Positions 2,135-19,298 of a stretch of 20,000 bases of DNA are shown here, in pieces. The notes under the pieces were generated by a model, which did not search any database, was not told where the DNA came from, and saw only the letters and a list, made by a program, of their open reading frames with translations. Source of the DNA: an uncultured virus (IMG/VR IMGVR_UViG_2778261060_000013) (Duplodnaviria > Heunggongvirae > Uroviricota > Caudoviricetes); IMG/VR virus record IMGVR_UViG_2778261060_000013; one strand, given 5' to 3'. Made by a program: the position numbers and the translations under genes. Position 1 is the stretch's first letter. Every line of letters begins with the position of its first letter.

Positions 2135-5100
2135 GTGGCTACAGAAAAGTTACGGGCAGAATTAGAGATATTAACGGCAAAGGCTGAGAAGGATTTGGCA
2201 AGGGTTGACAGGTCCTTAGCTGGTGTCGAAAAAAGAGTTGCGTCTATAGGAGGTAAAGGGGGCAAGTCCCTTAAGCCTTTGGGCGAAGGTTTGTCGGCCG
2301 CGACTGTAAACGCCAATGAGTTTGAGAAGTCAATGGCAGCAGCGAATGCCCGTGTTATCGCGTTCGGTGCTTCTGCGGGATTAATTTTACAAGTCCAAAG
2401 AGCTTTAAAAGAAACTGTTCGTGCTACTATAGAAGTAGAAAAATCTTTAACCGATATTAACGTAGTATTAAATACTAATACTAAAGGTCTGCAAAAATTT
2501 GGAGATAGTTTATTTAAGATAGCTGGTCAGACTGGACAAGGATTTAAAACTGTAGCCGTAGCTGCAACAGAACTTGCTAGGCAAGGCTTGAGTATGGAGA
2601 AAACTCTTCTTCGTACTAAAGACGCTTTAATCTTAACAAGGCTGACTGGAATGGGAGCTGAAGAAGCTGTATCATCTCTAACTGCAGCAGTCAACTCTTT
2701 TAATAAAGCTGGTATTACCTCTGCTCAGGTAGTTAATAAAATGGCAAAGGTCGATCAGGCTTTTGCTGTTAGTTCTGACGACTTAGCTAAAGCTATTTCT
2801 CGTGTTGGTTCGTCTGCTGTTGATGCAGGAGTTAGCATGGATGAACTTCTTGCTATTACTACCGCTGTGCAGCAGAGAACTGCTCGTGGTGGCGCTGTCA
2901 TTGGTAACGCCTTCAAAACTATTTTTACTAGGATTGGCAGAACTGACGTTCAGAAAAAACTAGCTGGTATAGGAGTTGCAACGAGAGATATGCAAGGACA
3001 AATGCTCCCTGCTACAAGAGTTTTGGAAAACTTGTCAACAAAATTTCAAGAGCTAAGTAAAAGTCAGCAAAACCAAATAGCAGAAAGCGTCGCTGGTGTT
3101 TTCCAAGTTAATATTTTACGTGCGGCTTTGGGCGATCTTTCTAGTAAGTATGGCGTTTATAACAGAGCGCTAAAAGAATCTGCTAGCGCAACAAATGAAG
3201 CTTACTTAAAAAACCAGCAGTTAAATCAAACACTTGATGCTTTAGTAAATAAAACTTTAGCTAATCTTACCAAAGCAGGAGCTGCGATAGGCGGCGCGAC
3301 TTTGAAGCCTGCTATTGAGAATGTTTTAGGTTTGGTTAATAGCGCTATAGGGGCTTTTGGGGAAGGAGGAAGATTCGAAGAGTTTGGTAAAGGAATAGGA
3401 AAAGATATAATGAAGGGCATCGGTAATTTTATAGCCGGTCCCGGATTAGTTGTGGTAACTGCAGGTATAGCCAAGTTAGCTTTTAGTTTCGCAAAATTTG
3501 CTGGAGATGCTTTAAAAGGATTTGCTGACATAGGTAGACAAGCTGCAAATAGAAAAGCTTTAGAAGCACAAATAACCGCAGAACTGCAAAGACAGCCAAA
3601 TATAATAAGACAAATAGAAAGAGGGGAGCTGTCTGCTGCTAACGCTGCTAAGGACATGCTAGCAGCGATGAAAGCTTCAAATCTAGAAGCTTCGAAACTT
3701 GCTGTAACTACTTCAAGAATATCTGCTAGTATGATGGGGATGGGTGCTCTTAGAAGACCCGGTCGAGCCCAAGGCTTTATTCCTAACTTCGCCGATCCGA
3801 ATGCAGAAAGAGCTTCCGCCGCTATGGGCGGATATAAAGCTGGAGCTATTAAAACTATGAACATCCCGGGGCAAGGCTCCGTTATGTATAATAGCGCAGA
3901 AACTGTTAAGAGATTCCCGGGTATGCAGCAGCCTGCTATTATGCCACCGCAAGGAAGCCGCGCTGGTTCTAATTATCAAAAAGCTTTCGGCGCTGCACAC
4001 GGCTTTGATCCTTACGCCGCTGGTGGATTTGTCCCTAACTTCAACAAGATGAGCGTAAAGCAACTTTTTGGATTAGATAGAAACGCTAAAATTAGAGATA
4101 TAAATGTAAACGAACAAAGGTCAAAGCAACTAGAAGATGCTGCGGCAGCAGGAAAATTAAGGTTCGATGATTATAGCGATAATCCAGCGATAGCAGCTGC
4201 TGTAACAAGAGGTAAATTAAGAGCTCAAGGCGCTAAAACAGAGCAAGTAGGTAAGAACTATACTCACAACGCAAGTTACCTAGGACTTTTAGGATTAGAA
4301 GGATCGCATCTGGGCACGAGCACAACATCTCTTGGTAAAATAGCTAGATTTGCTGATGCAGGGCTAGATCCTAGATTATTAAATAGAAAAGTTACCTTTA
4401 CCAACATGCAAGCTAACTCTATAGATGAGATAACTAAAGGTAGCACTCAGGTAAATAAATCTAAATTTTCTGATCTCATTTCGGAAAAAATGACAACCCC
4501 GGTGTCTCAAATAGCGAATGAGATCTTTAAAAAAGGTTTAGGAGACGATCATAAAGTCGCAGTAGCTGATTTACAAAAACAATTTAAAGGAAATCACCAA
4601 TTACTGCCTCCGGGCGCAGAAGGAAGTATATTTGAAGCGGCCGTTAACTTAGGGTTATTAACAACTAAAAAAAGTCCGAAGGCAAGATTAGATGCCTTTG
4701 ACCAAAGCACTAAAGGAGCCCAAAAACCTTTTGACTTTGAAGAGTCAGGAAGAGCTAAACCTCCTTTTAGAGATATCTTTCACTTTGAGGATAACCTTCT
4801 CTACGCAGACGCTAAAAGAACTATAGATAATAAGAGCATGGGCACGCTAATTAAAAAGGCCTACAATCAAGGCGTACCCGGGCTGCCCGGATTAGAGCTA
4901 CTCGAAGGGGGAGCAACTGTCGCAAAGGGCGCGAAAAAAGTTAAAGCTTTCGGCCATGTGCCAAACTTCTCTCCGTTAGGAGACGCCATCACAAGAGAAA
5001 GAGCGGCCGGTGTTCCTAGGTCTGCTATTAGAGTTGGCGCAAGCGCTTCATTGAAAAGTGCGGGTAATCCCGCCGGACTGGGAGTATACAATACTATAGA

Positions 5101-8100
5101 CGAACCAGCAGGTTTACACCAAGGAATTAGCAGGTCTAGAAGAATGGGCGTAAATCCAAAAGCTCATGGAGTGCCTAATTTTGCTAAGCCCTTTATAGAC
5201 ATGCCAGCGGGTTATGTGATGCCGGGAGCTTCTCCAGTCGCAGAATCTAGGACTCGAATAGAAGGCAGAGAAGGTCCTAAAAAAATAAATGAGGGTGGGA
5301 CAAAGATAAAAAAAGCTGCTGACACGATGAAAGCAGCTACGGATAAGCTAACGGGCGCTGGAGGATTGATGGCTCTATCTAGTATAGGCTATATGGCAGC
5401 CCCTGCCTTACAGCGAGCTACTGGCATGGATCCGCGCATAATGGACACTGGAATGATGGCGTTAGGAGGTCTAGGCGCAGCTCAAATGTTCTTGGGTTCA
5501 GACGCTGAAGGAGATAGTAAGAGAAGAGGAGCTAGAGAGTCTTTCTCTAGGTCAAGACGTGCCGCTCAGCTTAGAGCTACAAGAGCTGGGGCTACTGCTG
5601 GGAGAGGAGCAGGCGTCATGAGAGGGCTTAAGGCTGCTGGCGCCAGCATACTAGGCCTGCCTAAAGGAAAGGTCACTCCCGGAGGAGCTTTGAAAGGTTT
5701 AGCAAGGAGAGCGGCCTTGCCTGTAACCGCTTACGCCGCAACAGCGGCATATTTCAAAGGGGCAAATGAAAGTGAAGAAGAGAGAAACTTTAGATTAGCC
5801 CAAGAAGCTTTAACGAAAGCTCAAGAGTCGGACTCTAGGCCTATTCTAGAACAATTAGGAGCAGGAGTAAGCCAGTTTTCTGGAGGGTTCCGAACTAGTT
5901 CTTCGAAAGTAAGGCAACAGCAGTTTGGTGATATTAGGAACATGGTTTATGGCAAAGGCGGGCTAATGGAAGGAGCGGACACGGAAACTTCTAATATCGT
6001 GGGAGAAGCTTTTTCTGAATTCACTAATTCCTTTACTAGAGGAGCGCTAGCTGTAGAGTCCGCAGGGGAAAAATTTAATAAAGCTATAGCTGACGTTGCC
6101 GATAACCTTAGCGATAGGATGCGCGAGTTAGAGAATAGACAACTAATAACCGGTATACAGAAAGACTTCGCAGATCCTAAATTAGAGAGTAAGCCTATAC
6201 CCGGGTTTACGCAGGTGCTAAAGCGCGGAAAATTCGTTGACGCAGGTCCAGACGGAGCTCCAGAAGGAGCTAGGACAAGAGAGTTTTTCTTCGAAGGAGC
6301 TGCTAACGTAAAAAGAAGAGGTAAGGATTTAGCAGAGCGGATTATGGGCATGGCCGCTTCCCCTGATGAAATATTTAGGAATATATTAGCAGCAGAACAA
6401 CAACATGGCGGTACATTAGAGCAAAATTTACAAAGAATAGATTTATTTGATGACCCAACTTATAAAAAAGTCGACCGAGGCGTTTTTGGCGGGCTTTTTG
6501 GCGCTGATCATAAAGCGGGCAGGGCGAATGATCCTAATCTAAAAGCAGGCAGATTTGGTTTGGCTATGCTAGGCATTAGCCCCAAAATACAGGATCAGTT
6601 AAATGTTATAGATCCAGAAACTTTAAAAGCAGCAGAAGACGAGCTTCTTAAAATGTTCCAGAAGGGCGGTAGATTTGGACCCGGAGCTAACAGAGCTTTT
6701 AGGGCTGGCGGAGACCTCAAGGGGGTTAGTGTAGCTGGAGTAGATACATTTATGGAAAGAAGTGACGCGATGAGTGCTTCTACAGCAATCCAAATAGAAA
6801 AGCGTCGCACTGCTATGCTTATAAGCGATTTAAAAATTAGCCAAAAAACTAATTTATTAAGGAGGCAACATCAGGACGCTTTAATTGCTAGCACTAGGGG
6901 TATTTATGCAGAGTCTGACATAAAACTTAGAGAAGCTAAATTACAGAATAAGATAGCACATGATATAGAAGCAGAAGATATAAAATCTAGAATAGAAATA
7001 GCTAAGCAGCAACAAAGAGAATCTGCCGCAGGCATAGTGGCGGATGCAATAAGAAAAAGCCCATCTCAGGCTTCAGATTTACGTGGAGCTCGTTTTGATA
7101 TAGGAGGCATGGACATATTAGCAGCTCGGGATGATTTAATTGATACCCAAAGAAAGTTAGATAATCCTTTTGAATTATCGCCAGAACAGAAAAACTTGTT
7201 AGAGGTAAGGAAAAAACTTTTAGCGCTTAGGATAAAAACTTTAGGCGTTTTAGAGACTGAAAACGCCCTAACTATAGAAAATGCGCAAAAGCTTACGGCT
7301 GCCAATCAGAACGCTGATAAACAAAACGAAATAGATCGACAAATAATAGAAAATAAATATAAATACAATAGAGTTCTCGATATGGAGATAAAGCAAAAAG
7401 AGTTGCAGCTTCAGGTCGACAAAAATAGATTTCTTAGAACTGATTTGTTAACAGGCAGGATAACTGGACAGCAGTTTGCTTCAGGAAGAGCTAGGGAGCG
7501 CTCCATGCGCAGAGATGCAGAGGGTATGGCTGGGCAGCCTATGGTTGGTTTTGGGACAATAATGCAAGAAAGGTTTGCGTACGGCCCAAGAAATGCAGCC
7601 GAAGATTTCGAGCAAGGTATGGCTGACGTTGCTGACACAATCAAAGGCGGCATGAAAGACTCTATCAAGGGCCTTATCTCTGGCGCAGAAGATTTCAAGT
7701 CTGCCTTAAGAAACGTGATGGACAAACTTCTGGATAAAACTTTAGACACGGGACTTGAGGTAGTGGTAGGTAATTTGTTCGGCAAGCTTGGTAATTTTGC
7801 TGGCCGCGCTGGCGGTGGCGGGTTTGGGTTTGGTGGATTTCTTAACCAAGGTGGTATTGTCAGGGGTGGTTCTGGGGTCAAAGACGACGTCATGACGTTT
7901 ATGCAGGGCGGAGAGTATGTTATTAAGAAAAGTGCCGCTCAGAAAATAGGTTATGGCACGCTTAATGCAATAAATAGTTACTCATCTGGCGGCAAAGCTA
8001 GAGTATCTTTAGCAAAAGATTTCATGTATACTGGCGATGACCCTACAAGGCCAACGGGAGGAGGGTTCAAAGTAAGCAGAGGGCTATCTACAAGAGCTTT

Positions 8101-8812
8101 ATTTAGAGATGACGACCCGCAAACAGGTAGAGTTTTCGGAAGACAGCAAAAACTAGCAAGCTATCTTGAGTATAGAAGAGCAGAGCAGGCGAGAAGAGAT
8201 GCTGCTGTGCAAAGAGTTAAAGACCAAAAGAGCGCAAGGCTTAGAAAGGCCTACATAGGGGCCGCTATCAACATTGGGGCCGGAGCTATCATGCAGAGGA
8301 TGCAAACTAATGCTATTATAGACAAGGGCGTCTCTGACGCTACTACCGGTGCGGTTCCCATAGGTAGTCCTGCTGGGATTGGTGTTAACTTTAACAATAT
8401 GTCTGCTCGAGGCGGTTCTCCTGCGCTTGTTCAAGGCGGCGAATATATTATGAGCCCACGAACCACTGCTAAATACGGCACAGGGTTCATGGCAGAACTA
8501 AATCGCGGTAGGATGCCCGGATTTAATATGGGCGGTCTAGTTGGCGGTGGCGGAGGCGCGGGAGGCGGTATAACCACAAATAACGTCAACCTTGCAATCA
8601 ATGTTGATAAATCTGGTCAAACGTCTGTGCAGACAGAACAAACATCTGGCGGCGGCAAAGATAAAGAGAGAGAAGACAAGTCTGAAATCGAAAGACAGAA
8701 AAAGATGGGCGAAGCTATCAGAGGTGTTGTTCTGAAAGAAATCGAAAGACAACAAAGACCGGGTGGGCTGTTAAGAGATAATGCCAGTTACTCTGGCGGA
8801 AGAAGAATCTAA
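2135..8812 (+). CDS. Phage tail tape measure protein (TP901-family-like core), 2225 aa, multidomain
   Basis: Ala/Gly-rich helical protein. The region at aa ~90-340 has TMP core motifs (VAVAATELARQG; VVNKMAKVDQAFAVSSDDLAKAISRVGSSA; GGAVIGNAFKTIFTRI; QIAESVAG). It has hydrophobic segments, two GGEY[VI] repeats and a lambda gpH-like end (EIERQQRPGGLL). GTG start. Confidence 0.95.
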   Translation: MATEKLRAELEILTAKAEKDLARVDRSLAGVEKRVASIGGKGGKSLKPLGEGLSAATVNANEFEKSMAAANARVIAFGASAGLILQVQRALKETVRATIEVEKSLTDINVVLNTNTKGLQKFGDSLFKIAGQTGQGFKTVAVAATELARQGLSMEKTLLRTKDALILTRLTGMGAEEAVSSLTAAVNSFNKAGITSAQVVNKMAKVDQAFAVSSDDLAKAISRVGSSAVDAGVSMDELLAITTAVQQRTARGGAVIGNAFKTIFTRIGRTDVQKKLAGIGVATRDMQGQMLPATRVLENLSTKFQELSKSQQNQIAESVAGVFQVNILRAALGDLSSKYGVYNRALKESASATNEAYLKNQQLNQTLDALVNKTLANLTKAGAAIGGATLKPAIENVLGLVNSAIGAFGEGGRFEEFGKGIGKDIMKGIGNFIAGPGLVVVTAGIAKLAFSFAKFAGDALKGFADIGRQAANRKALEAQITAELQRQPNIIRQIERGELSAANAAKDMLAAMKASNLEASKLAVTTSRISASMMGMGALRRPGRAQGFIPNFADPNAERASAAMGGYKAGAIKTMNIPGQGSVMYNSAETVKRFPGMQQPAIMPPQGSRAGSNYQKAFGAAHGFDPYAAGGFVPNFNKMSVKQLFGLDRNAKIRDINVNEQRSKQLEDAAAAGKLRFDDYSDNPAIAAAVTRGKLRAQGAKTEQVGKNYTHNASYLGLLGLEGSHLGTSTTSLGKIARFADAGLDPRLLNRKVTFTNMQANSIDEITKGSTQVNKSKFSDLISEKMTTPVSQIANEIFKKGLGDDHKVAVADLQKQFKGNHQLLPPGAEGSIFEAAVNLGLLTTKKSPKARLDAFDQSTKGAQKPFDFEESGRAKPPFRDIFHFEDNLLYADAKRTIDNKSMGTLIKKAYNQGVPGLPGLELLEGGATVAKGAKKVKAFGHVPNFSPLGDAITRERAAGVPRSAIRVGASASLKSAGNPAGLGVYNTIDEPAGLHQGISRSRRMGVNPKAHGVPNFAKPFIDMPAGYVMPGASPVAESRTRIEGREGPKKINEGGTKIKKAADTMKAATDKLTGAGGLMALSSIGYMAAPALQRATGMDPRIMDTGMMALGGLGAAQMFLGSDAEGDSKRRGARESFSRSRRAAQLRATRAGATAGRGAGVMRGLKAAGASILGLPKGKVTPGGALKGLARRAALPVTAYAATAAYFKGANESEEERNFRLAQEALTKAQESDSRPILEQLGAGVSQFSGGFRTSSSKVRQQQFGDIRNMVYGKGGLMEGADTETSNIVGEAFSEFTNSFTRGALAVESAGEKFNKAIADVADNLSDRMRELENRQLITGIQKDFADPKLESKPIPGFTQVLKRGKFVDAGPDGAPEGARTREFFFEGAANVKRRGKDLAERIMGMAASPDEIFRNILAAEQQHGGTLEQNLQRIDLFDDPTYKKVDRGVFGGLFGADHKAGRANDPNLKAGRFGLAMLGISPKIQDQLNVIDPETLKAAEDELLKMFQKGGRFGPGANRAFRAGGDLKGVSVAGVDTFMERSDAMSASTAIQIEKRRTAMLISDLKISQKTNLLRRQHQDALIASTRGIYAESDIKLREAKLQNKIAHDIEAEDIKSRIEIAKQQQRESAAGIVADAIRKSPSQASDLRGARFDIGGMDILAARDDLIDTQRKLDNPFELSPEQKNLLEVRKKLLALRIKTLGVLETENALTIENAQKLTAANQNADKQNEIDRQIIENKYKYNRVLDMEIKQKELQLQVDKNRFLRTDLLTGRITGQQFASGRARERSMRRDAEGMAGQPMVGFGTIMQERFAYGPRNAAEDFEQGMADVADTIKGGMKDSIKGLISGAEDFKSALRNVMDKLLDKTLDTGLEVVVGNLFGKLGNFAGRAGGGGFGFGGFLNQGGIVRGGSGVKDDVMTFMQGGEYVIKKSAAQKIGYGTLNAINSYSSGGKARVSLAKDFMYTGDDPTRPTGGGFKVSRGLSTRALFRDDDPQTGRVFGRQQKLASYLEYRRAEQARRDAAVQRVKDQKSARLRKAYIGAAINIGAGAIMQRMQTNAIIDKGVSDATTGAVPIGSPAGIGVNFNNMSARGGSPALVQGGEYIMSPRTTAKYGTGFMAELNRGRMPGFNMGGLVGGGGGAGGGITTNNVNLAINVDKSGQTSVQTEQTSGGGKDKEREDKSEIERQKKMGEAIRGVVLKEIERQQRPGGLLRDNASYSGGRRI
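3773..5182 (+). repeat. Four [IV]PNF peptide motifs within the TMP
   Basis: GFIPNF 3773-3790, GFVPNF 4025-4042, GHVPNF 4952-4969, HGVPNF 5165-5182. Confidence 0.9.
4622..4870 (+). other. Putative PD-(D/E)xK nuclease-like domain inside the TMP
   Basis: GSIFEAAV (E at 4634), PFDF (D at 4733) and YADAKRT (D 4808, K 4814) occur in the order typical of the restriction-endonuclease fold. Confidence 0.55.
7838..8545 (+). repeat. Two GG...QGGEY[VI]...K.G.G...[IL]N modules in the TMP C-terminus
   Basis: NQGGIVRGGSGVKDDVMTFMQGGEYVIKKSAAQKIGYGTLNAIN (~7838-7975) and ARGGSPALVQGGEYIMSPRTTAKYGTGFMAELNRG (~8405-8510). Confidence 0.85.
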
Positions 8813-9654
8813 AGTTTAGATTCTAACTCAATAATTCTTTTTTCTAACTCCATGAATTTATCTTCTATAATCATGGCGCCTTCATTATACATTTTGAAGG
8901 CGTTTATTGTCCCTCTTTCTACAATAGGTATTTTCATCTTAGGTGTCTGGTCAATTTTCTGAGCGATACAAATAATCTGACCATCGAAGTCTTTTAAGTT
9001 TTCTTTATCTAAGGTTATTGTGGACCGATAAATTTTTATTTGGCCTTCGGGAATAAACTCAGGAATAGGGTATTCAAAAGATATATAATTAGCACCTTTC
9101 GCAAACGCCGAACTTCTTACATTCTTTTCTATTACTTTAATTTTCTTAGTGTCGGTGAACTCTACGACTATTTTTAAATCCTTGCCGCCAGCTCCCTCTG
9201 GAGATATCTCCCTGTGACCAGATACAAAGAAGTTTTCTACATTGTCTAAAGATACTGAGGTTACTTTACCATCTTCTACTTTTCTAATATTTACATTACA
9301 TTTGCCGCCGTATTCTTCGTGAACAATAACCTGCCCCTCTTCATAGCCACTCCCTCCGTCTGCTATCATTGCGTGCTTCTCTATAGCATACTCTTTTATG
9401 TACATCTCAACAAAGTCTCTGGAGAAAAATTGAGCTTTGTCTAAGTCGGTAATAACAATATACTTTTTGTCATCTTGGGTTATCTGGGAAAAGTTAAACC
9501 AAATTTCTTCTTTTTTAATTTCTCTGATTGAGTAGTATTCATCTTCTATTCTTACAGAAAAGCTTTCATTTATAGTCAGAAAATTTTTATCTGACTGACA
9601 TAATAATTTATTAGATCCCTTGTCTATACTTGCAGAAAAATTAACTAACTTCAT
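8809..9654 (-). CDS. Hypothetical virion/tail-associated protein, 281 aa
   Basis: Last gene of the tail-tip operon. Beta-rich, with a GGSGY...GKVTSVSL...GAGG module and a C-terminal coiled coil (MELEKRIIELESKL). Its TAG overlaps the TMP stop. Confidence 0.75.
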   Translation of the reverse strand: MKLVNFSASIDKGSNKLLCQSDKNFLTINESFSVRIEDEYYSIREIKKEEIWFNFSQITQDDKKYIVITDLDKAQFFSRDFVEMYIKEYAIEKHAMIADGGSGYEEGQVIVHEEYGGKCNVNIRKVEDGKVTSVSLDNVENFFVSGHREISPEGAGGKDLKIVVEFTDTKKIKVIEKNVRSSAFAKGANYISFEYPIPEFIPEGQIKIYRSTITLDKENLKDFDGQIICIAQKIDQTPKMKIPIVERGTINAFKMYNEGAMIIEDKFMELEKRIIELESKL

Positions 9655-9666
9655 ACATTTATCTTA

Positions 9667-11721
9667 TTAATTTAGAGCCATAAAGCCAACAAAAATTCTC
9701 ATAGTCGGAGTTTTTTGGCCAAACTGTGTTGCTCTAGCATTAGTAGAACCTATATTAAGGACAGCTTTTTCTTGAGTAAGCTCTACGATTTTAACCGTAG
9801 CTTCATCATTAGATTCTGAAAAAACTTTAAGTGTTCCGTCTTCTAAAATATAAGGCGTAATTACAGGTATGTAATCTTTAGGCTCTTTAAATGAAAAGGT
9901 AATTTGTTCATTAGGGTATTGTTCTGTGAGAAGATTTTTTTCAACTCTAACATTACTAAGGCTGCCATTAACCACATCTATATAAGAGTAGCATCTGAAA
10001 GCCTGAGATCTAAAACCCTCATCAACAGCAGCTTTTTTATAAATCGTCATAGACGATATTGTTAACTGGTCTTTGTTGAAAGTATTTTTGCCATCTATCT
10101 CTAGACCGTTAAACTGAGATATGGGAGGGGCGACTTTGCTAAAAGATAAATCTTTTTCGCCGAGTATGCTTTCTACTTCTTTTCCGTCGACTGAACCTAT
10201 AATAGGATTACCATCTGCCGTAAAATGTTTCCTAAGATGCAGATTATCAAAAATACCTATGATTATGTTAGAATCTAAAATAGTATTAGTTGAAAAAGCA
10301 TTGGGCGCAGGTATAGAAAGAATTAAATCAGAAGAAGTATCGTTAAAATTTTCTGCAAGTACAAAAGTTCTATTTACATCTACTACAGTATCTTCAACTG
10401 TAACTTTTTGCACAGAACCGTTGCTTAAATTTATTTCTTCTGGATTTAAATTAAACGGCTGGTCTGCATAGTATATAACAACTCCGGCCATAGATTCAAA
10501 AGTTTCGTCTATTATCTCTGCTTCAGATTTAACAGAAGATTTTGTGGCGGTATCAATACTCTTTCTAAAGTCTAATATAATATTACCTTCTTCAGAAAGC
10601 TTAGGTTCAATAATGTATGGGATTGCTCTATCAAAACCTTCTTGCGGACTGACAAAACTTTCTCTGTCGCTATACTCGTTTAGAAAAAATATACTTTCGG
10701 GCTTTACTATTTCGACTTCTAAAATATCATATCCGCCGTTTTCAAAGTTGCCTTCTTTGCCTTCATTAATAGTATTGTCATGTAAGACATTACCAGCGCT
10801 AGTTTTTAAAGTGTCTTTATTATATGCCTCAATTACTAAATCAAACTTTCTAAGTGGCAGCTTTTCTTTTTTAAGTTTATTTGTTACGACGAAACTATTT
10901 TCTTCATCTTTATGATGCGTTTCACCTTCTGCTATATTTTTTATTCCTATCTCTGAATTAAAAAAAGAAGAAAAAATAAACTCTCCCTTGATCAAGTCTT
11001 GGTTGTAAAATTCATAAAGTATGTTAGGACTCGGCTGATTGTTGGGGCTTACTTCTCTTATGGTGGCTCTAGTTAGTCCCTTGAAAGTTAAATTAGAGGC
11101 AGCAGACGGAGGCGCAGACGCTTTGTAGGTAAAAGAGGGGCTGTCTTCATTTCTTATTTTTGCAACACTTGTATTGTCTCCTATCTGTTTACTAGCAGGA
11201 CTTCCGTCTAAACCTTCTGCTTCTCCGTTCAACGTCAATGCGTATATCTTCAACTGTTCCGTAATGTCCACAGCATCAACGTCATCGTCTACTTTAACAC
11301 CGCCTTCGCTGCTTCCTGTGCTGCCCGAGCTATCTGCGTCCACAGCGTCTTGATCTTGTCTCGGCGGGTAGTAAACTGGCCCAAAAAATTTACCATCTAA
11401 TACAGACCAAATAGAAAAGAAATACCTGCCCGTCTTTTCTGCGAAATATGTAAACTTGTAAGTTTGAAAATCTTCTAGTTTTAAGTTCTCGTCATTTGGA
11501 GAAGAGGTAAGAAAATCTCTTCCATCAATAGTAAAAAAAGTTCCCCCTAATCCGTTATCTATATTGTTCTGTTCTGTTTCAGACTTTTGAGATGAAAAAG
11601 TAGTAGAAGAAAAGTCAGTGCCAAACTTGACCAAAAGTATAAACTCATCGTACTCTTTATAATCATACTCGTCATTTTCTCCGTTATACGAGTCCCAGTA
11701 TATGTTTATTTTTTTAGACAT
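9667..11721 (-). CDS. Hypothetical tail-tip-associated protein, 684 aa (beta-sandwich/FN3-like N-terminus)
   Basis: Long acidic ORF 3 nt downstream of and in frame with gpJ. The N-terminus INIYWDS...YKFTY...GRYFFSIWSV looks FN3-like. Ends with tandem TAA TAA. Confidence 0.75.
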   Translation of the reverse strand: MSKKINIYWDSYNGENDEYDYKEYDEFILLVKFGTDFSSTTFSSQKSETEQNNIDNGLGGTFFTIDGRDFLTSSPNDENLKLEDFQTYKFTYFAEKTGRYFFSIWSVLDGKFFGPVYYPPRQDQDAVDADSSGSTGSSEGGVKVDDDVDAVDITEQLKIYALTLNGEAEGLDGSPASKQIGDNTSVAKIRNEDSPSFTYKASAPPSAASNLTFKGLTRATIREVSPNNQPSPNILYEFYNQDLIKGEFIFSSFFNSEIGIKNIAEGETHHKDEENSFVVTNKLKKEKLPLRKFDLVIEAYNKDTLKTSAGNVLHDNTINEGKEGNFENGGYDILEVEIVKPESIFFLNEYSDRESFVSPQEGFDRAIPYIIEPKLSEEGNIILDFRKSIDTATKSSVKSEAEIIDETFESMAGVVIYYADQPFNLNPEEINLSNGSVQKVTVEDTVVDVNRTFVLAENFNDTSSDLILSIPAPNAFSTNTILDSNIIIGIFDNLHLRKHFTADGNPIIGSVDGKEVESILGEKDLSFSKVAPPISQFNGLEIDGKNTFNKDQLTISSMTIYKKAAVDEGFRSQAFRCYSYIDVVNGSLSNVRVEKNLLTEQYPNEQITFSFKEPKDYIPVITPYILEDGTLKVFSESNDEATVKIVELTQEKAVLNIGSTNARATQFGQKTPTMRIFVGFMALN

Positions 11722-11724
11722 GGT

Positions 11725-14700
11725 TTATTGGTCTGAAAATCTTCTTGGTACTATTTTCTCTGTTCCGGTTTCTGGGTCAGAAGGGTTGTCAGATCTGTCA
11801 TCTTCTATATTACCTTCATAAAACAAGCTAGTTGAGGTTGAGGCTATTTGGGTATGTTTAAAGGAAGGAGCTAAATCTATATGCACGTTATAGCTTTTGA
11901 TTGTAGTTCCTTGTAGGTCGACACTATTGTATTCTTTGCAATCATTTACAGCAAGATAGCCATCAACCATTGTTAACCCAGAATCATTTAGGCCGTGGCC
12001 AAAAGTAAACGATGTAGTTAGTTTCGAAGAGTTATCTGAGTTAACATCTATACCTCTGCCTTCTTCAGTTTTATATTTTCTTTTATCATTATCTTCTCTG
12101 GTTTCAAGACCTCTAACGTACAGACACTCTGTTCTGTCGTCTGCAACTACGTTTCCGTCTTGGTCATGAGTAACTTTTATCTTTCCGGGATACTCAACAG
12201 GCATATAGGTAGAAGTAGATATTCCTTTTTCTGTATAGTCATCTACAGTAACAAAGTATTTGTCTATGTAGTCTTTAGGTGTTTTATATAATTTTGGAGC
12301 TATCTTGGAATCTACTCTAGTGTTATCAGCTTCTGGGTGATTAAGTACCACGGCTGGAGACTGATTGCATGTGTTAGCTTCTCCCGGTAACAGTGAAGGT
12401 ATATCGTTCAAGTTAACAGCGAAAGTATATCTATAGCCGTTTTGGTCATGGCAATCTAGCACTTCGCCCGCTGAATCTAAATCAAACTCAGGAGAAACGC
12501 TTACTGTAAACATGGCATATTGACCGGGGTGTATGTAGTCCAAAAGCTCTTTATCACCTTTTTCTAGAATAGAGTTATATTGGGCTTTGTTGCTAAAAGT
12601 AGTTTTTGGAAAGAAGGTAAACTCAAAATCTTCGTTGTAGTTTTCTCCGCAGAAGTTTAATTTAGCAAAGTCTGCATAATTTTTTACTATTTTTTGAGTT
12701 TGTTCAGATTTGTCGACTATTGCATCAATATACTCAAAATTAACGTCCGCAAAAGGTTCATAGCTATCATCGGCATCACATAAGCATCCCTCTTGATAGG
12801 CAAGTTTTCCATTTTCTTGTTGACGATTAGAGCTAAGATTTGAAAAAGAAAAGTCGCGTATATCTTTAGTGGCTTCATCTCTTCTCTCTACAGGAATTAC
12901 GTTTCCGTCGTCATCTCTTAGAAAATCTGGGAAAACATAAAGCGCGTGTTGTATCAAAACTTTGTATTTTTGATTAGGTGGAGCAACCCAGTATACATTG
13001 CCATTTTTTATATTTTCTGAGCTGTAGCTTCCATTAAAAGCATGGCCTATATGGGTATTATCTTTTGGATCATTACATTTGTCTTTTGCTGTAACAGAGT
13101 CGTCCCACTCTATTGTTCTTAAAGACTCTTTAGTTAAGTCTCTCAACCCGTAGGAGGCGGGGAAAACTCTATCAACCACGACATATCCTAGGGACTCAAG
13201 ATACTCTTGGCTATGCTCGCAATAATCATCTACGACATATCTAAGCCTGCTGCCTGCTATAGCGTCAGATTCATTATCGAAAGCTAGTTTTCTATCAACT
13301 AAGTAAAAGTCTCCATACTGATCTGTTTTTTCAGAGTACTCAAAATAAAAGGATTCGCCGCGATTGGCAAAATAAGTTAATGAGTTGTAATAATCCAAAG
13401 CTGCTTGTTGGTTGGCTTCTGTAGACATATTACCAAACACATCTTCGTCGTTTACAGGTTTGATTTTGTAATTGCTAGCAACTTGGTCCTCTAATCCTTG
13501 AGAGGGGCTGAAGTCTCCTAAATTAATATTTAGTTTAAACTTCATTGGGAAGAACCTTTCGTTTGTAAAGTTGACAGGCGTTTCTGGTTTAGGTTCAGTT
13601 ATCTCGGTAGGCTTAACACATATTCCCTCTTCTTGAATATCTTTGCAGCTTCTGTCTTTATAAAACTCCCCTTTAAGCTCATCACATTCACTTCTTTTTA
13701 AGTTATTAAAGCAAGAGTTTGTATCTCCGTTACTAACACAGCACGCCCCTTCATCAGATGGATCATATTCGAAAGGAGGAGGGGTCTTCTTTTCTTCTGT
13801 TTCGTTAGGCTTTTCTACATCGTTTTCATCAACTCTTACGTTTTCAACAGGGCCGCCTATGCTCGAGCCATAATCTACCACAGGCGGTGCAGTAGATTCG
13901 TATACTTCCATATTATGCTCTATAGCTGTAATATCATACTTGCTATCATTCTCAATAATATTTACAACTTTAAAAGTTTGCTGTTCTCCAGAAGCTAGTT
14001 CGTCATTGAGAGTGTAATTTCTATTCCTCGTCTTATCTTTATATCTGGGTTCTATAGACCAAATTAAGTTAGCTCCATCTGGATTAGTATATTCAGAAGA
14101 GTAAGCACCTGTGTTACCAGCGGCCAAGTCTCCTATAACAGAAGAGTTGTTGTACCCAGTAATAGAGTACCCAGTGAAATCAAGCCCGCTTTGATGTAAG
14201 CTGTCAAAAAATATTTTTGTTACTATGCCACTACCGCTGACTGAAAAATCTGAATGATAATTTCCAGTGAAAGGTAAAGCCTGAAAACCACTAAAGTAAA
14301 TATTCTGAACTTGATTTTTTCTTATCTCTGGATAGTCGGCAGAAGTTAAAGCTTCGTCTGTATTGTCTGCGCTAACCGTTATAGTTTCTACGGTAGTGGT
14401 CTTTGTTTCGCTTGCTGTTCTAGTTCTAGTTTCAAAGGTTTTAACTTTTTTAATGTGATTAAATTGAAAAATATCTTGAAATGCAGTAGTGGGTTGAGAT
14501 GGCGTAGTTTCTCTATATTCAACTCTAGAACTAAGGTGTAGCTTGTTTACGTCTGTAGCAGCAGCATAAGCTGTAATAGGATGTATGACTTTTACTACAA
14601 GAGAGGTGACCCCTGCAGGTTTTATAAATTTAAGAGATATTTGTTTTGCACTATTAATTAGCAATAAGTTCTCAGAGCTTTTATTGCTTGACTGATGCAC

Positions 14701-17631
14701 ATTAGCGCTAAAAGGTATGCGGTGACTAAAAGCATCTTCTTTAGCGTCTAAGTAAGCTATTTCTTCTTGTGCCAAAGATCTAGTTTCATCAGAGACGTCG
14801 GGGTCGGTGCTGTAAAACTGTAAACAGTCAAATATATCACCGTTTCTTCTAGTACTAATTTGAGCTCCTTCGCGAATTGCACCCTCTCCGTGGGTCATTT
14901 GTTTTTGAGCTTTTTCTCTAAGCTGCGTTTGAGCTCTAGCGGTTCTTACTCCGCCTAATTGCATTATTGATTGAGTTTCTGCTCCTATATATTTAGTTTC
15001 TGCTATTACATTTCCATCTTGGTCTTCAATAACTATTCTTTTAGGAAACCCGGGCTTAGAGCTTTCTCTTACTTTACCGTCGAAATATTCTTTTTTCTTG
15101 GCGCCGTTTTGATAAGAGCTAAAGCCAAAAGAAAACTCTGCTTTACCTTCTGCAACGCTAATAGTTTTAGTAGTCGTAAAAATATTAGTGTTATCTATGC
15201 TGTCATTAAAGTTATCGCTTAATCTGCCTGCTAGACTCATGCCGGGAGACTTGGGCGATGTGTCCTCTAAAGAAAAAAGGTTAACTGGAGAATCTATAAC
15301 AGTTTCAATTTCTTCTGTTATATTTTCGCCTTCGGTCTCAGTAGTTGTTTCTAAAGTTACATCTTCGACGCAATTAGAAGGAGTTATTTGAGAAGCTTCA
15401 TAATAGTTAGTTGGTGTCAGTATTGATAGCTTGTACTCTGTATCAGGAACAAAATGTATAGGCTTATCTATGACTATTGCATTGCCCGTAACAAGCATTG
15501 ACCCGTTGTCATCTGCTCTGTCATAAGTTGAATATAGGCCGCTGGGTATAACGCCAGTCGCAGTTTCTTCAACTTTTAAAGTTCTGCCTGCCAGCTTTCT
15601 GTCATTTCTAAACTCATCATATATTGTAATAACATCTCCGGGCCTGATGTAGTTACCTTCGTTGCCTGCTGTAAATGCTACAGTTTCTGTTTGCAAAACT
15701 TCACTTCTTAGTATCCACTCACCAAATCTTTTTGCTTGGCCTTCGCTTGTGCATCCTATGGCGCTAGTCTCTATCTCTTTAATTCCATATCTTTGTATAC
15801 CAAGTTGGTCTTCGGTATAACATATAGAAGGTTGATAAAGATTATTTTTGTCATTGTATCTAACAATAGCTACCGTATGTCTAGCTCGTTTTGCCGACGA
15901 AGAATATACAAAGTTACCATCTACAACATTAGAGTTGTTAAAAAGATAAATAGGCAGCTTTGGCCTATCTTGAGAAACATATATGCCGCCAAAAGCAAAA
16001 TAAACTATAGCTCTGAACGCAGATGCTAAATCATTTACAACTTTATAAGCTTCTTCTCTAGATGTGATAATATGATTAAGAGTGAATCTGGGCTCAAGTC
16101 CACCTTTGCCATCAGCAACAAGTACGTCGCAATATTTAGCTATTTCATACAGTGTCCACTTGTCAACAATGTCACTATCTATATACTCACCTAAGCCGTA
16201 TCTGTTATTGGTAATTAAATCGTAAAAACACCACGCAGGGTTATTTGTCCACTCTTTTCTAGCTTCAAAACAACCATCCCAATACCCTAAAGGTTCTGTA
16301 TAAGTTCTTAGTATAGGGTCATAGGTGTTGGGTATTTTTACTTTTTGTAATTTTGTTTCATAGGCTCTGCTAGGCAGCCTGCTGAAAAATTCTGCATTAA
16401 ATTTAGAATAAACCATACTGCAGTATGGATATCTAATTACAGAGTCGTATATTTCTACTATAGAATCTACAAAAGATTCATTTTTAAGATAGGAATGAAC
16501 AGAGTCAGGGGTGAGGCGGATAATTTTAATTTCCCAGCCTTGAAAGTATTTATAAAATTTACTATCTCTTGGGTTTTCTTTTTTCCAAATGCCTTTTCTA
16601 AAGTCTATCTCAACACTTCTTAAATACGGTTCTTCTATTTTACCGAAGATTACGTCGTCCACATCAGGAATACTTTTCCATGGAACAAATAAATCTTCTG
16701 CGCTGGGAGTTTTTGCAGTATCTGAGCTAGTTATAATGTTTCTTGTATCGTATACAGGTCTAGTGTATATTTGATATCTAATTTTTCTAGCCTTTTGATC
16801 GCCTTGGCCAAATGTGAGCTGTGCGTTTTGATGCTTTTCTTTTTTGTCGAAAAAGCTCTGCCTGCCTTTGCCTTGTGGCGGAACAATAGCGTTATCATAA
16901 GGGTCGTCAAAAAGAGTTTCCATCAATCTAGGAATCTTTATATTGACTTGTATGGCGACACACTCTTTATTTAAGACATTATATACTTTTGCATTTCTGT
17001 CTATTTCCCCAAGTAAAGTTGGCGGATTATTAACTTCTTCTTCGCCACCTCCGCCAAAGTCTTCTGAGCCATAAGCTTTGTTATAATCGTTATTAGTATT
17101 TTCAACTAATTTAGGAGACCTATACCCCGGCGTTTTTTCTGGAGTAGAAAGGTCTATAGAAGGACCAAAAAGTCTGTCTCCTAAAGACCTAAAAACAGAA
17201 AGCTCAAAATCATTAACACCTTTAGAGTTTGCTTGATTAGGTAGACTGTCGTTAAGGGAGGGTATTTCTCCTTGCGGTATACCTTTAACCCAGTTTAAAT
17301 TTACTTCTTGAAAATTATAAAAGCCATCTTTATCAACGACAGGAACTTCATTCCAGTAAACTGAGCGTAAAAAGCCTAAGTCAGTTTTACAGTTACCGTT
17401 TTCATCTAGCGCTGTGTAAGCTGTAAATTTTGAATCATCATATCCTACATTACCTTCCTGCCCTTGGAATCTATATTCTCCGCTAACAATACCTTCTATT
17501 TCGCCTTCGCAGATTAAGTCAGCAATAACAACTTCGCTTACCGCAGAGTATAATCCTGTTTCTCCAGAATGAAAAACACCTGCTTCATCTGTAATAGGCG
17601 GTCTTGATACGCGTGGATCCTTTTTACCCAT
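11725..17631 (-). CDS. J: Tail tip / host specificity protein, lambda gpJ-like, 1968 aa
   Basis: DLICEGEIEG; KVKIPNTYDP...WDGCF...WTNNPAWCFYDLITNNRYGLG; DKWTLYEIAKYCDVLVADGKGGLEPRFTLN; IGCTSEGQAKRFGEW; IRPGDVITIYD are characteristic gpJ motifs. Follows L-K-I. Confidence 0.95.
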   Translation of the reverse strand: MGKKDPRVSRPPITDEAGVFHSGETGLYSAVSEVVIADLICEGEIEGIVSGEYRFQGQEGNVGYDDSKFTAYTALDENGNCKTDLGFLRSVYWNEVPVVDKDGFYNFQEVNLNWVKGIPQGEIPSLNDSLPNQANSKGVNDFELSVFRSLGDRLFGPSIDLSTPEKTPGYRSPKLVENTNNDYNKAYGSEDFGGGGEEEVNNPPTLLGEIDRNAKVYNVLNKECVAIQVNIKIPRLMETLFDDPYDNAIVPPQGKGRQSFFDKKEKHQNAQLTFGQGDQKARKIRYQIYTRPVYDTRNIITSSDTAKTPSAEDLFVPWKSIPDVDDVIFGKIEEPYLRSVEIDFRKGIWKKENPRDSKFYKYFQGWEIKIIRLTPDSVHSYLKNESFVDSIVEIYDSVIRYPYCSMVYSKFNAEFFSRLPSRAYETKLQKVKIPNTYDPILRTYTEPLGYWDGCFEARKEWTNNPAWCFYDLITNNRYGLGEYIDSDIVDKWTLYEIAKYCDVLVADGKGGLEPRFTLNHIITSREEAYKVVNDLASAFRAIVYFAFGGIYVSQDRPKLPIYLFNNSNVVDGNFVYSSSAKRARHTVAIVRYNDKNNLYQPSICYTEDQLGIQRYGIKEIETSAIGCTSEGQAKRFGEWILRSEVLQTETVAFTAGNEGNYIRPGDVITIYDEFRNDRKLAGRTLKVEETATGVIPSGLYSTYDRADDNGSMLVTGNAIVIDKPIHFVPDTEYKLSILTPTNYYEASQITPSNCVEDVTLETTTETEGENITEEIETVIDSPVNLFSLEDTSPKSPGMSLAGRLSDNFNDSIDNTNIFTTTKTISVAEGKAEFSFGFSSYQNGAKKKEYFDGKVRESSKPGFPKRIVIEDQDGNVIAETKYIGAETQSIMQLGGVRTARAQTQLREKAQKQMTHGEGAIREGAQISTRRNGDIFDCLQFYSTDPDVSDETRSLAQEEIAYLDAKEDAFSHRIPFSANVHQSSNKSSENLLLINSAKQISLKFIKPAGVTSLVVKVIHPITAYAAATDVNKLHLSSRVEYRETTPSQPTTAFQDIFQFNHIKKVKTFETRTRTASETKTTTVETITVSADNTDEALTSADYPEIRKNQVQNIYFSGFQALPFTGNYHSDFSVSGSGIVTKIFFDSLHQSGLDFTGYSITGYNNSSVIGDLAAGNTGAYSSEYTNPDGANLIWSIEPRYKDKTRNRNYTLNDELASGEQQTFKVVNIIENDSKYDITAIEHNMEVYESTAPPVVDYGSSIGGPVENVRVDENDVEKPNETEEKKTPPPFEYDPSDEGACCVSNGDTNSCFNNLKRSECDELKGEFYKDRSCKDIQEEGICVKPTEITEPKPETPVNFTNERFFPMKFKLNINLGDFSPSQGLEDQVASNYKIKPVNDEDVFGNMSTEANQQAALDYYNSLTYFANRGESFYFEYSEKTDQYGDFYLVDRKLAFDNESDAIAGSRLRYVVDDYCEHSQEYLESLGYVVVDRVFPASYGLRDLTKESLRTIEWDDSVTAKDKCNDPKDNTHIGHAFNGSYSSENIKNGNVYWVAPPNQKYKVLIQHALYVFPDFLRDDDGNVIPVERRDEATKDIRDFSFSNLSSNRQQENGKLAYQEGCLCDADDSYEPFADVNFEYIDAIVDKSEQTQKIVKNYADFAKLNFCGENYNEDFEFTFFPKTTFSNKAQYNSILEKGDKELLDYIHPGQYAMFTVSVSPEFDLDSAGEVLDCHDQNGYRYTFAVNLNDIPSLLPGEANTCNQSPAVVLNHPEADNTRVDSKIAPKLYKTPKDYIDKYFVTVDDYTEKGISTSTYMPVEYPGKIKVTHDQDGNVVADDRTECLYVRGLETREDNDKRKYKTEEGRGIDVNSDNSSKLTTSFTFGHGLNDSGLTMVDGYLAVNDCKEYNSVDLQGTTIKSYNVHIDLAPSFKHTQIASTSTSLFYEGNIEDDRSDNPSDPETGTEKIVPRRFSDQ

Positions 17632-17632
17632 A

Positions 17633-18565
17633 TTATCTTTCTTTAGCTTCTATTTTAATTTCATTTCCTACTGTAATGTAGTCGTCACCGTTGCTTACTA
17701 TTATAGTGTTATCGGGCACAGTTGAACTAACATAATTATTAGTAGGGTCACACTCATCTGGAGAGCCATCTGATTTACTCACTTGCTCTGCCCTAGTTTT
17801 CATAACAGTGTCTCCTAGGGTAGGGTTACCGGACTTGTCTTTTAAGTTATTGCCATAGTCGAGTCCGTAACCGTCGTAGCCCCAATAGTTTTTGAAAGGC
17901 ACGAAAGTTAATTTATCTGCGGACCTGTTCATATAGTTGCCATTTTTTTGGTCTTTGGTTTCTATGCTTGATTGTATGACATGACTCCCAACTAAAAGTC
18001 TTCCATAGCCTACGAAAACTGGCCCACCTTCTCTTACTGTATTGGCGGGGCCAGTAAATAGAAAAGACGGACGCCCACCGCCTTCTATCTGTCTAAAATC
18101 TTCAAACTCTGGCATGGGTGTAAGCAGGTTAGCTATACCTGCTGCCATAAGGCCAATGCCCGCCATAAGCAAAGCCGCGCCCATGGGGCCAGCTACAAAA
18201 AAACTTGCCACTACTAAAACGGCTCCTAGTATAGTAGTAAATGCGTCGCTTCCGGCCCCTTCAATGACAGGAATGACGTCAATAGTTTCTAAATCTCTTT
18301 TTAAAACTAATTCAGAGTGTTCCACGCCTTCTAGTTCGTTAATATTTCTGGAAGTATCGTGGACAAAATCTTTACCGTTTATAAGAACTCTATATTTAAT
18401 ATTTTTCTTATCATTCTCAATCAAGTTTGTATAAAGTTTTTTAGTCTGCTCTTGCACAGCTTTCATAGCCTCACTAACAGAATTTACGGAGAGTTTCCAA
18501 ATTTCTCTGCCGATAGCTTTGCCTAGCTCCCCGTGAAATTTTATAGTTGTTAGTTTATCGTCCAT
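17633..18565 (-). CDS. I: Tail assembly protein, lambda gpI-like (ubiquitin-like N-terminal domain + hydrophobic hairpin), 310 aa
   Basis: IKFHGELGKAIG...VSEAMKAV...IDVIPVIEGAG, a hydrophobic segment, then SFLFTGPANTVREGGPVFVGYGRLLVGSHVI. Confidence 0.92.
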   Translation of the reverse strand: MDDKLTTIKFHGELGKAIGREIWKLSVNSVSEAMKAVQEQTKKLYTNLIENDKKNIKYRVLINGKDFVHDTSRNINELEGVEHSELVLKRDLETIDVIPVIEGAGSDAFTTILGAVLVVASFFVAGPMGAALLMAGIGLMAAGIANLLTPMPEFEDFRQIEGGGRPSFLFTGPANTVREGGPVFVGYGRLLVGSHVIQSSIETKDQKNGNYMNRSADKLTFVPFKNYWGYDGYGLDYGNNLKDKSGNPTLGDTVMKTRAEQVSKSDGSPDECDPTNNYVSSTVPDNTIIVSNGDDYITVGNEIKIEAKER

Positions 18566-19298
18566 TGTTATATCTATACACTTGAGTTAAATTCTTAAAA
18601 TATTTATCAATCTTTTCACAATTAGGTCTTCTACCTATTTTGTGGTGGAGAAAATTATTGTTTGAAATATATACGCCAAAGTGATCCACATTATCTTTTA
18701 TAGAAAAACATAGGATGTCACCTTGTTTTAAATCTTCTATTGTATTAAAAGAAACTTTTATTAAATTTTTTTTATTTAACTCAAATGTTTCCTCAACAAA
18801 ACTTTTTGATTTAGCACGCCATTTAGAATCTCTATCGTTTAAAGATTTAGGCAGTAGCAGATTATACCCAACTGATTTATTTAAGTAGTCCTGAACTAAA
18901 GATATGCAGTCAGACTCTCCCCACTTAAATTTTTTTTCTAAAATTTCTATTTTTTCATGTTCGTGCCTGAAGACTTTAAAAGTATCAGAAGTTAAATCAT
19001 ACAAAACAAAGTCTATTTTATGTTTGAGGCTGTCTTCTTTATCTTTGAGAGAAAAATCTGGATTACCGTTTGTGTGAGAATGATAAATAGCTTTTATTTG
19101 CCCGAGATTAGAAGTTTTAAAATAATCTAAAGTGTCAACAGAGAAAGAAATATTTTTTTCCTTAGCTATGTTTCTGGCTTTTTTAGTTTTTACTAGGCCG
19201 GTGTCTTCGTCTGAATATAAAAAACCGCAACATTCTTTGGGAGTGTCTTCCAAAGCGTGATTTTTGATAAATTCACGATTTTCTTTATCTAAAATCAT
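18555..19298 (-). CDS. K: Tail assembly protein, lambda gpK-like (JAB/MPN metallopeptidase + NlpC/P60), 247 aa
   Basis: JAB motif PKECCGF...YHSHT...FSLKD; NlpC/P60 motif DCISLVQDY...GDIL...HFGVY...FLHH. Confidence 0.93.
   Translation of the reverse strand: MILDKENREFIKNHALEDTPKECCGFLYSDEDTGLVKTKKARNIAKEKNISFSVDTLDYFKTSNLGQIKAIYHSHTNGNPDFSLKDKEDSLKHKIDFVLYDLTSDTFKVFRHEHEKIEILEKKFKWGESDCISLVQDYLNKSVGYNLLLPKSLNDRDSKWRAKSKSFVEETFELNKKNLIKVSFNTIEDLKQGDILCFSIKDNVDHFGVYISNNNFLHHKIGRRPNCEKIDKYFKNLTQVYRYNNGR

Follow-up and report, generated by a model that had tools for sequence, protein, structure and literature searches.

What does a folded domain, set between short and nearly identical peptides, do inside the tape measure protein of a phage tail? 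The question is raised by a 20,000-nucleotide stretch of DNA (the window) from an uncultured member of the Caudoviricetes (IMG/VR record IMGVR_UViG_2778261060_000013), in which one gene encodes a long tape measure protein (Table 1). A first-pass annotation, made from the sequence alone, had noticed four [IV]PNF motifs in this protein and suggested that they are either cleavage sites or cassette boundaries of a polyprotein that delivers an exchangeable effector into the host. The motifs were found where it had placed them, at intervals of 78, 303 and 65 residues, and they span 3773..5182 from the first to the fourth. The fullest explanation that we can offer, and one that we hold with moderate confidence, is that of a mosaic ruler with an exchangeable passenger fenced by peptides. 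Residues 547-1016 are a cassette locus, in which each of two small modules, A and B, has G-[FLYH]-[IV]-P-N-[FY] (the fence peptides) at either end; the modules hold between them a passenger of about 300 residues, which is predicted to fold on its own. What is new is the cassette architecture together with the fence peptide; neither the carrier nor the notion that a tail can bear a passenger is new.

Judged from its sequence and its neighbours, the carrier is the tape measure protein of an uncultured marine long-tailed phage, of the PF10145 / TP901 type. Indeed, it scores 101.7 bits against PF10145 in Pfam (gathering cut-off 33.2), PHROG tape-measure families match the 2225-aa protein (best 3e-53), a profile search with its family retrieves tape measure chains of known structure (8iyk_H, 5.9e-13; 8vjh_Q, 3.6e-11; 8zdo_S, 5.6e-08), and homologues of the lambda tail genes L, K, I and J adjoin the gene. 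The matches to the solved chains span profile positions ~1287-1822, which correspond to the long helical part of the protein (variable region 2, below). The N-terminal core also matches rulers of Bacillus and Lactococcus phages, at 27-29% identity. With residues 507-1066 as the query, a word-indexed search gave 511 proteins at E<=0.001 among 7,996 scored candidates, and PF10145 was present in 114 of 120 among the matches listed. An exhaustive search of 1.84 billion representatives gave 1,005 clusters at 50% identity (666 at 1e-10), with lengths of up to 5,354 residues, and many of these clusters match the query in two stretches alone, which are the two modules. No cultured relative of residues 530-1035 was found by tblastn in 50,697 phage records, on which megablast was run too.

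PNF occurs exactly four times in the window protein, where its composition predicts 0.13 occurrences. Chance or low complexity as the origin of the motifs was rejected on this excess, together with conservation across the family. Statistics on modules, motifs and inserts were drawn from 260 family proteins; strict motifs are present at least twice in 241 of them, and up to 12 times. The 932 unique instances give the logo [AS]-x-G-[FLY]-[IV]-P-N-[F/Y]-[AS], with G at 88%, [IV] at 98% and F at 81% against Y at 19%, the P and N being fixed by the search pattern. Conservation free of this bias was measured on rows taken from modules defined by hidden Markov models (HMMs), with no pre-selection for the motif (233 unique rows for module A and 247 for module B). 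Among the module-A rows, motif 2 has G in 225, P in 226, N in 221 and F/Y in 223, and motif 1 is looser (212, 219, 174 and 175, respectively). Among the module-B rows, motif 3 has G in 235, P in 243, N in 231 and F/Y in 243; motif 4 has P in 206, N in 203 and F/Y in 203, about 41 rows being gapped. At the DNA level, 327 motif instances from 80 IMG/VR loci comprise 178 distinct 18-mers and use every synonymous codon of G, P, N and F. A DNA-level recombination site was rejected on this ground. Since the codons are freely synonymous, selection acts on the peptide, and the codon usage indicates that it is as a peptide, and not as a DNA site, that the motif is kept.

The motif is also confined to this gene. 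In frames of at least 60 residues across the whole genome bin to which the window belongs, G.[IVL]PN[FY] was found in the ruler protein (three times, the fourth motif being HGVPNF) and at a single site on contig C55, and no other protein of the 77-kb phage contig carries a PNF motif. The ruler being the sole carrier on that contig, the motif is not one common to head proteins. A full-text search of the literature for GFVPNF-type strings, or for a VPNF, IPNF or PNF motif, gave no relevant paper. In an AlphaFold2 model of residues 530-1035 built on 51 sequences (mean predicted local distance difference test score, pLDDT, 71.6; predicted template modelling score, pTM, 0.45), the four motifs lie mostly in 10-residue blocks with a mean pLDDT of 33-49, motif 1 lying partly in a block at 74; they are predicted to be flexible linkers between folded modules. 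Their conservation, their position at the junctions and this predicted flexibility fit a processing site and a peptide ordered by a partner (the tube lumen, a chaperone or other copies of the chain) alike.

The two modules are the constant part of the cassette. The module A HMM matches 253 of the 260 proteins and the module B HMM 254, nearly always once each; the insert HMM matches 151. Module A has 32 invariant columns in an alignment of 56 sequences, and module B has 20. In the model, module A consists of a helix, four strands and a helix (pLDDT 74-88, model residues 21-100) and module B of a helix, two strands and helices (pLDDT 73-87). Module A had no match in Pfam (E<=10) or among PDB sequences. 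Aligned with each other by hhalign, the two modules gave a probability of 81% (E 1.2e-5) over 72 columns that include both motifs; they are probably old and distant paralogues. The first-pass annotation had also held that the segment lacks the Ala-rich helical character of a length ruler. As to composition this stands for residues 701-900 (6-11% Ala) and fails for residues 501-700 and 901-1100 (14-20%); as to structure it agrees with the prediction, which is mixed alpha/beta and globular, with no single long helix.

We then asked whether the segment between the modules is really exchanged. The core and the insert have, as the alignments indicate, different histories, because a relative with a 99% identical core (P0021) differs from the window protein in its insert, and relatives with less similar cores (~90%) have inserts ~91-95% identical to that of the window. 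Along the comparison with P0021, the core is 99-100% identical and 75-residue windows remain at 93-100% through residue 600, residue-level identity stops just after motif 2, at residue 637, and falls to 22-39% over residues 676-900, to recover at motif 3 and reach 79% over residues 976-1050; it is then 17-38% over residues 1051-1725 and 88-100% from residue 1726. Two further pairs, P0164/P0174 (core 99.1%) and P0161/P0162 (95.7%), behave in the same way: identity stops directly after motif 2 and resumes at motif 3, module B is essentially 100% identical, and a second loss follows motif 4. Variable region 2, which is larger than variable region 1 (the passenger insert), is thus swapped between close relatives too, and on these comparisons the gene is a mosaic of three constant and two variable segments. 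Of 350 protein pairs whose N-terminal cores share 90% identity or more, 15 have inserts for which no alignment covers half the length (11 of them give no BLAST hit at all), and the count is 201 of 1,293 for cores at least 80% identical.

The diversity of what lies between the peptides is large. PNF-bounded segments of at least 40 residues number 668 and fall into 123 sequence families, three of them large (module A, module B and the insert type of the window) and about 120 small; in 103 proteins that have both modules and no match to the insert HMM, the distance between A and B ranges from 152 to 2638 residues. At the DNA level, 80 related IMG/VR loci, compared in pairs at least 88% identical in their flanks, gave 21 internal homology gaps. 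On the left, all 21 gaps open 0 to +15 nt past the final base of a motif; on the right, 15 of them close no more than 12 nt from the start of a motif. By chance, ~3.5% would be expected per edge. Of the two roles that the first-pass annotation had offered for the motifs, that of cassette boundaries is therefore the one borne out: motifs and flanking modules are conserved, the segment between them varies and is exchanged, and the breaks between near-identical proteins fall at the motifs, which is the outcome that it had proposed for a collection of homologues.

As for the passenger itself, modelling the insert alone (residues 690-930) gave a pLDDT of 83.1 and a pTM of 0.78, so that the passenger is predicted with confidence to fold on its own. 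No match to this fold, or to the whole 506-aa model, was found by Foldseek in the PDB, VIA wide or BFVD. The insert and modules of the window protein had no match in Pfam at E<=10, the insert had none among PDB sequences, either as a single sequence or with profiles, and the ESM Atlas gave no usable match. None of 55 inserts from other loci scored above the Pfam cut-off (one had a weak Harpin match, E 0.0059), and 13 giant relatives matched solely PF10145, one DUF7178 and one sub-threshold PGDYG. The DUF7178 match (E 1.1e-11) is in a protein of 3481 aa (P0153), where residues 1342-1538 form a cassette with PNF motifs at residues 1315 and 1553; it is the sole cassette outside the modules that has a Pfam name among these 13 giants.

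A conserved core was nevertheless found by an iterated HMM in 245 of 298 inserts, including inserts that BLAST does not align to each other. The 179 unique cores have a median pairwise identity of 26%; G830, E834, D867 and K894 are invariant in them, K908 is conserved at 99%, and position 892 is D in 75% and E in 25%. The 56-sequence alignment shows these signature residues invariant as well. By these profiles, what the cassette holds in most of the family are highly diverged alleles of a single domain type, with a core of ~95 residues, and not unrelated cargoes; the "exchangeable effector" of the first-pass annotation needs qualifying in this sense, because 245 of 298 inserts have one core in common. 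The core carries, at the sequence level, the E ... D ... (D/E)xK signature of PD-(D/E)xK nucleases. A strict regular expression, E..D..[DE]xK, had found it in 43 of 267 long PNF-bounded segments and in none of the shuffled controls, before it was replaced by the iterated HMM. The model places E834 on a helix and [DE]xK on a strand, after which comes the helix that bears K908; D867 is in a loop (pLDDT ~50), there is no strand hairpin, and no nuclease family came up in fold or profile searches with the insert. We take "nuclease-like" as a tentative lead, with more chances to fail than to hold. A safer statement is that the conserved residues are predicted to form an enzyme or ligand site.

Several observations weigh against the explanation by an exchangeable, peptide-fenced passenger. 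The locus pairs behind the 21 gaps are not independent, several loci being near-duplicates, and six of the 21 right edges lie away from motifs, at 1.2-2.2 kb, where they are the far ends of variable region 2. The left edge of variable region 2 lies ~20 residues past motif 4 in the comparison of the window with P0021; in other pairs it comes directly after motif 4. The sharp edges may also be the places where old, unalignable alleles meet the conserved modules, and not crossover points. Moreover, 53 of the 298 inserts are without the conserved core; they come mostly from the longest proteins, and on these profiles such relatives carry other, unrecognised cassettes. The exit of the passenger from the virion, its release and its activity are put forward as a proposal only. 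Finally, the homologues of L, K, I and J are encoded on the other strand and L is cut by the end of the contig, so that a second ruler gene, of the lambda type, is possible past that end.

This last point leads to a different view of the protein. In phage lambda, the ruler gene is upstream of M-L-K-I-J and on the same strand. In the window, the lambda-type tip genes are convergent with the ruler gene, and when the ends of the contig were joined, to see it as a closed circle, the L frame was not continued, which means that the contig is not a complete circle. The window protein might then be a second, tape-measure-like ejection protein, the true ruler being upstream of M-L-K-I-J past the contig end. 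We regard this as very improbable. PF10145 has a single match in the whole bin, the ruler protein itself, in a search for that family alone, to which lambda-type rulers do not belong; and downstream of the homologue in a related contig, the genes keep to its strand. Above all, the protein has all the parts of a ruler, namely a PF10145 core, a helical region and a gpH-like C-terminal joint. The joint is present in two copies (7910-7993 and 8420-8575, plus strand) with the pattern GE[FY]V...G...L...N...GG; by BLASTP, residues 2096-2158 align with residues 747-812 of lambda gpH at E 0.001, and the first copy does so at E 0.062. Modules A and B, compared with the gpH joint or with the protein's own C-terminal joints, showed no profile similarity (probability ~0.1%), in a comparison of low sensitivity, the templates being single sequences; a homology of the modules to the gpH joint is thus not supported.

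According to the mosaic explanation, which we favour, exchange would take place by recombination in the conserved flanking DNA that codes for modules A and B, this DNA being the likeliest substrate. The fence peptide would be a functional linear motif required at each domain junction, either as a docking or register element, facing the interior of the tail tube or an assembly partner, or as a processing site. The passenger would travel inside the tail and leave it with the tape measure protein when infection starts; its E / D / [DE]xK / K site would act as an enzyme or a binding site, possibly on nucleic acid, and its rapid turnover would reflect a conflict with the host.

A quieter role is conceivable for all these parts. 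The peptides and modules A and B might stay uncut and dock the chain to the tube lumen, to chaperones or to other copies of the ruler, the passenger being a structural or DNA-end-holding bead and not an enzyme, and its diversity the result of drift or of adaptation to the host envelope. Strong conservation, as protein, of both the motif and the predicted disordered stretch HGFDPYAAxG beside it is typical of a peptide that takes on order only when it binds a partner, and the modules do form constant islands between two variable regions. The insert also lacks a match to any known enzyme family, and its family was not found as a free-standing protein: just seven short proteins match it, five of which come from contigs of 771-2,083 bp or have no contig recorded, and the other two are on one contig of 12,879 bp, where they are probably a split gene. 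However, the five polar or charged residues that remain invariant at a median identity of 26% resemble a catalytic or ligand site more than a spacer, and we consider this structural role possible but rather unlikely.

The polyprotein of the first-pass annotation is the other way to read the peptides. PN[FY] would then mark processing sites, and the cut would come from a phage enzyme such as the gpK-like JAB/NlpC-P60 protein, from a host protease or from self-cleavage at Asn; the modules and the passenger would thereby become free proteins, either before the ruler is ejected or afterwards. Each folded unit has the motif on its flanks, just as cleavage sites delimit the products of viral polyproteins; its Pro and Asn hardly vary, and it lies in linkers that are predicted to be flexible. 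Backbone cleavage at Asn occurs in other proteins. In addition, the tail module encodes a protein with peptidase-type domains; this gpK-like protein is the sole candidate protease seen near the ruler gene, in a putative role. The tape measure proteins of T5 and lambda are both cut in tail maturation: in the part of PMC10038345 available, T5 pb2 is described as cut after R1127 into pb2* and pb2C, which separates an enzymatic domain from the ruler, and in the corresponding part of PMC12617516 lambda gpH is cut into gpH* and gpHC, the site and the protease being given as unknown. The fence peptide, however, bears no sequence likeness to the mapped T5 site, and lambda gpH has no PN[FY]. In a chain of 2225 residues, cuts within 547-1016 would part the N-terminal core from the C-terminal region that binds the tip. 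The motif is found in no other protein of the contig, cultured relatives are lacking as said above, and the ruler gene is split at a motif in 0 of 80 loci, one of the 80 ending early, away from a motif. Altogether, processing at the peptides seems to us unlikely. In the locus with the early end (L047:890-5407), the ruler frame has 1506 aa; a frameshift or a sequencing error may account for this, or the protein may simply be shorter.

One may go further and speculate that the protein is an injected polyprotein, cut at G-x-[IV]-P-N-[FY] by Asn-driven self-cleavage or by the gpK-like peptidase, which would release a nuclease-like passenger of new fold against host nucleic acid or host defence, modules A and B being a dedicated swap device. 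This combination is improbable in our view. If it were true, a polymorphic-effector system would be built into the tail ruler of ~1,000 phage lineages.

Comparison with known systems helps to place the mosaic ruler among them. Motif 3 of mycobacteriophage TM4 is an enzymatic domain embedded in a ruler. T5 pb2 likewise has a C-terminal metallopeptidase embedded in its ruler, as stated in the available part of PMC10038345. The window protein resembles such PF10145-type rulers with embedded enzymes in its PF10145 core, its long helical ruler and the presence inside it of a folded domain that is not ruler; in those proteins the embedded domain is thought to act on the host as infection starts. It differs from them in that its domain matches no known family, lies in the N-terminal half of the chain, where two dedicated modules, both conserved, enclose it, and is fenced by hexapeptides and exchanged as a cassette. 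With lambda gpH the likeness is at the other end of the chain, the stretch that aligns with the joint of the window protein being inside gpHC. The sole conceptual neighbour that a literature search on tape measure proteins combined with cassettes, mosaics or polymorphic toxins or effectors retrieved is PMC13277306, on the Sle1-type effectors of actinobacterial contractile injection systems. According to its abstract, these are also tape-measure-like carriers with diverse, exchangeable domains loaded in a tube, a likeness drawn from their description; in contrast to the window protein, their functional domain is C-terminal and the injection system is bacterial, and the abstract makes no mention of a fence peptide.

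A parallel may also be drawn with the polymorphic toxin systems, in which a conserved junction motif (VENN, Rhs) stands ahead of a variable toxin domain. They have in common with the window protein a constant carrier, a short conserved junction peptide and divergent alleles exchanged by recombination. However, their cassette is C-terminal, whereas that of the window is internal (residues 637-939 of 2225) and fenced on both sides. The carrier here is a virion protein, no toxin family was recognised, and the next gene is a convergent tail gene; no immunity gene was seen by the cassette, although no search was aimed at one.

Tape measure proteins are usually seen as passive rulers, sometimes with a cell-wall enzyme. 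Here, a very large family of which all members are uncultured (~1,000 clusters at 50% identity) has a dedicated architecture to carry and swap folded passengers, marked at all the junctions examined by a hexapeptide that is conserved as protein. If this peptide is a processing or docking signal, it offers a sequence handle for tail-borne passengers in metagenomes, and a testable model of how folded domains are packed in the tail tube and expelled from it. The passenger is a candidate for a new enzyme family acting in the first seconds of infection, because its confidently predicted fold has no known relative and its charged site is invariant. The system also bears on where and how tape measure proteins are cut, a matter in which, as noted above, the lambda site and protease are described as unknown (PMC12617516, in part).

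Table 1. Features of the tape measure gene and of the adjoining tail genes, in window coordinates.
Feature	Position	Strand	Remarks
Tape measure protein gene	2135..8812	+	2225 aa, GTG start; from the open reading frame list and its translation
PhageMin_Tail (PF10145) domain	2528..3097	+	aa 132-321, inside the constant N-terminal core (aa 1 to ~540)
Fence peptide 1, GFIPNF	3773..3790	+	aa 547-552, Pro aa 550
Module A	3791..4024	+	aa 553-630, small alpha/beta domain with conserved tail HGFDPYAAGG
Fence peptide 2, GFVPNF	4025..4042	+	aa 631-636, Pro aa 634; left edge of variable region 1
Passenger insert (variable region 1)	4043..4951	+	aa 637-939; variable N-terminal part, then folded alpha/beta domain (predicted)
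Conserved core of insert	4598..4879	+	aa 822-915; G830, E834, D867, [DE]892, K894, K908
Fence peptide 3, GHVPNF	4952..4969	+	aa 940-945, Pro aa 943; right edge of variable region 1
Module B	4970..5164	+	aa 946-1010, small alpha/beta domain
Fence peptide 4, HGVPNF	5165..5182	+	aa 1011-1016, Pro aa 1014
Variable region 2	5240..7309	+	aa ~1036-1725; Gly-rich hydrophobic stretch and long helical ruler
C-terminal constant region	7910..8575	+	two GE[FY]V...G...L...N joint copies, aa 1926-1953 and 2096-2147
J	11725-17631	-	1968 aa
I	17633-18565	-
gpK-like tail protein	18555..19298	-	JAB and NlpC/P60 peptidase-type domains (PF00877 1.6e-11, PF14464 5.9e-08)
L	19295-19900	-	truncated by the contig end

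The window is C12:56988-76987, the final 20 kb of a contig of 76,987 bp (C12) in a genome bin of 1.98 Mb. The G+C content of this contig (35-46%, against 29.8% for the bin) and the phage structural genes present throughout it identify it as a phage contig, that is, a prophage or a mis-binned sequence; it may be mis-binned rather than a prophage. The tail-tip module occupies 8809-19999 on the minus strand, and its last stop codon overlaps that of the ruler gene at 8809-8812. Beyond J, this module has two open reading frames (ORFs) of 684 and 281 aa without a family match. Directly upstream of the ruler gene, three ORFs on the plus strand (55-285, 251-1066 and 1087-2115) match nothing in PHROG or Pfam; the first shares 35 nt with the second, as in a frameshift-joined chaperone pair, and the third has just a sub-threshold match to a pPIWI-associated nuclease family (E 0.0087). 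Around a 3004-aa relative of the ruler (L008), the PHROG annotation of the neighbouring genes was uninformative.

Elsewhere on the contig, C12:32457-52348 (L004:1294-14348 and L003:13457-18256) contains seven paralogous genes, of 359-388 aa, with matches to baseplate-wedge and tail-fibre PHROGs. The gene of a collagen-like fibre protein of 1640 aa is set among them, and that of another, of 1599 aa, stands ahead of them. Together they make up a large battery of possible receptor-binding proteins.

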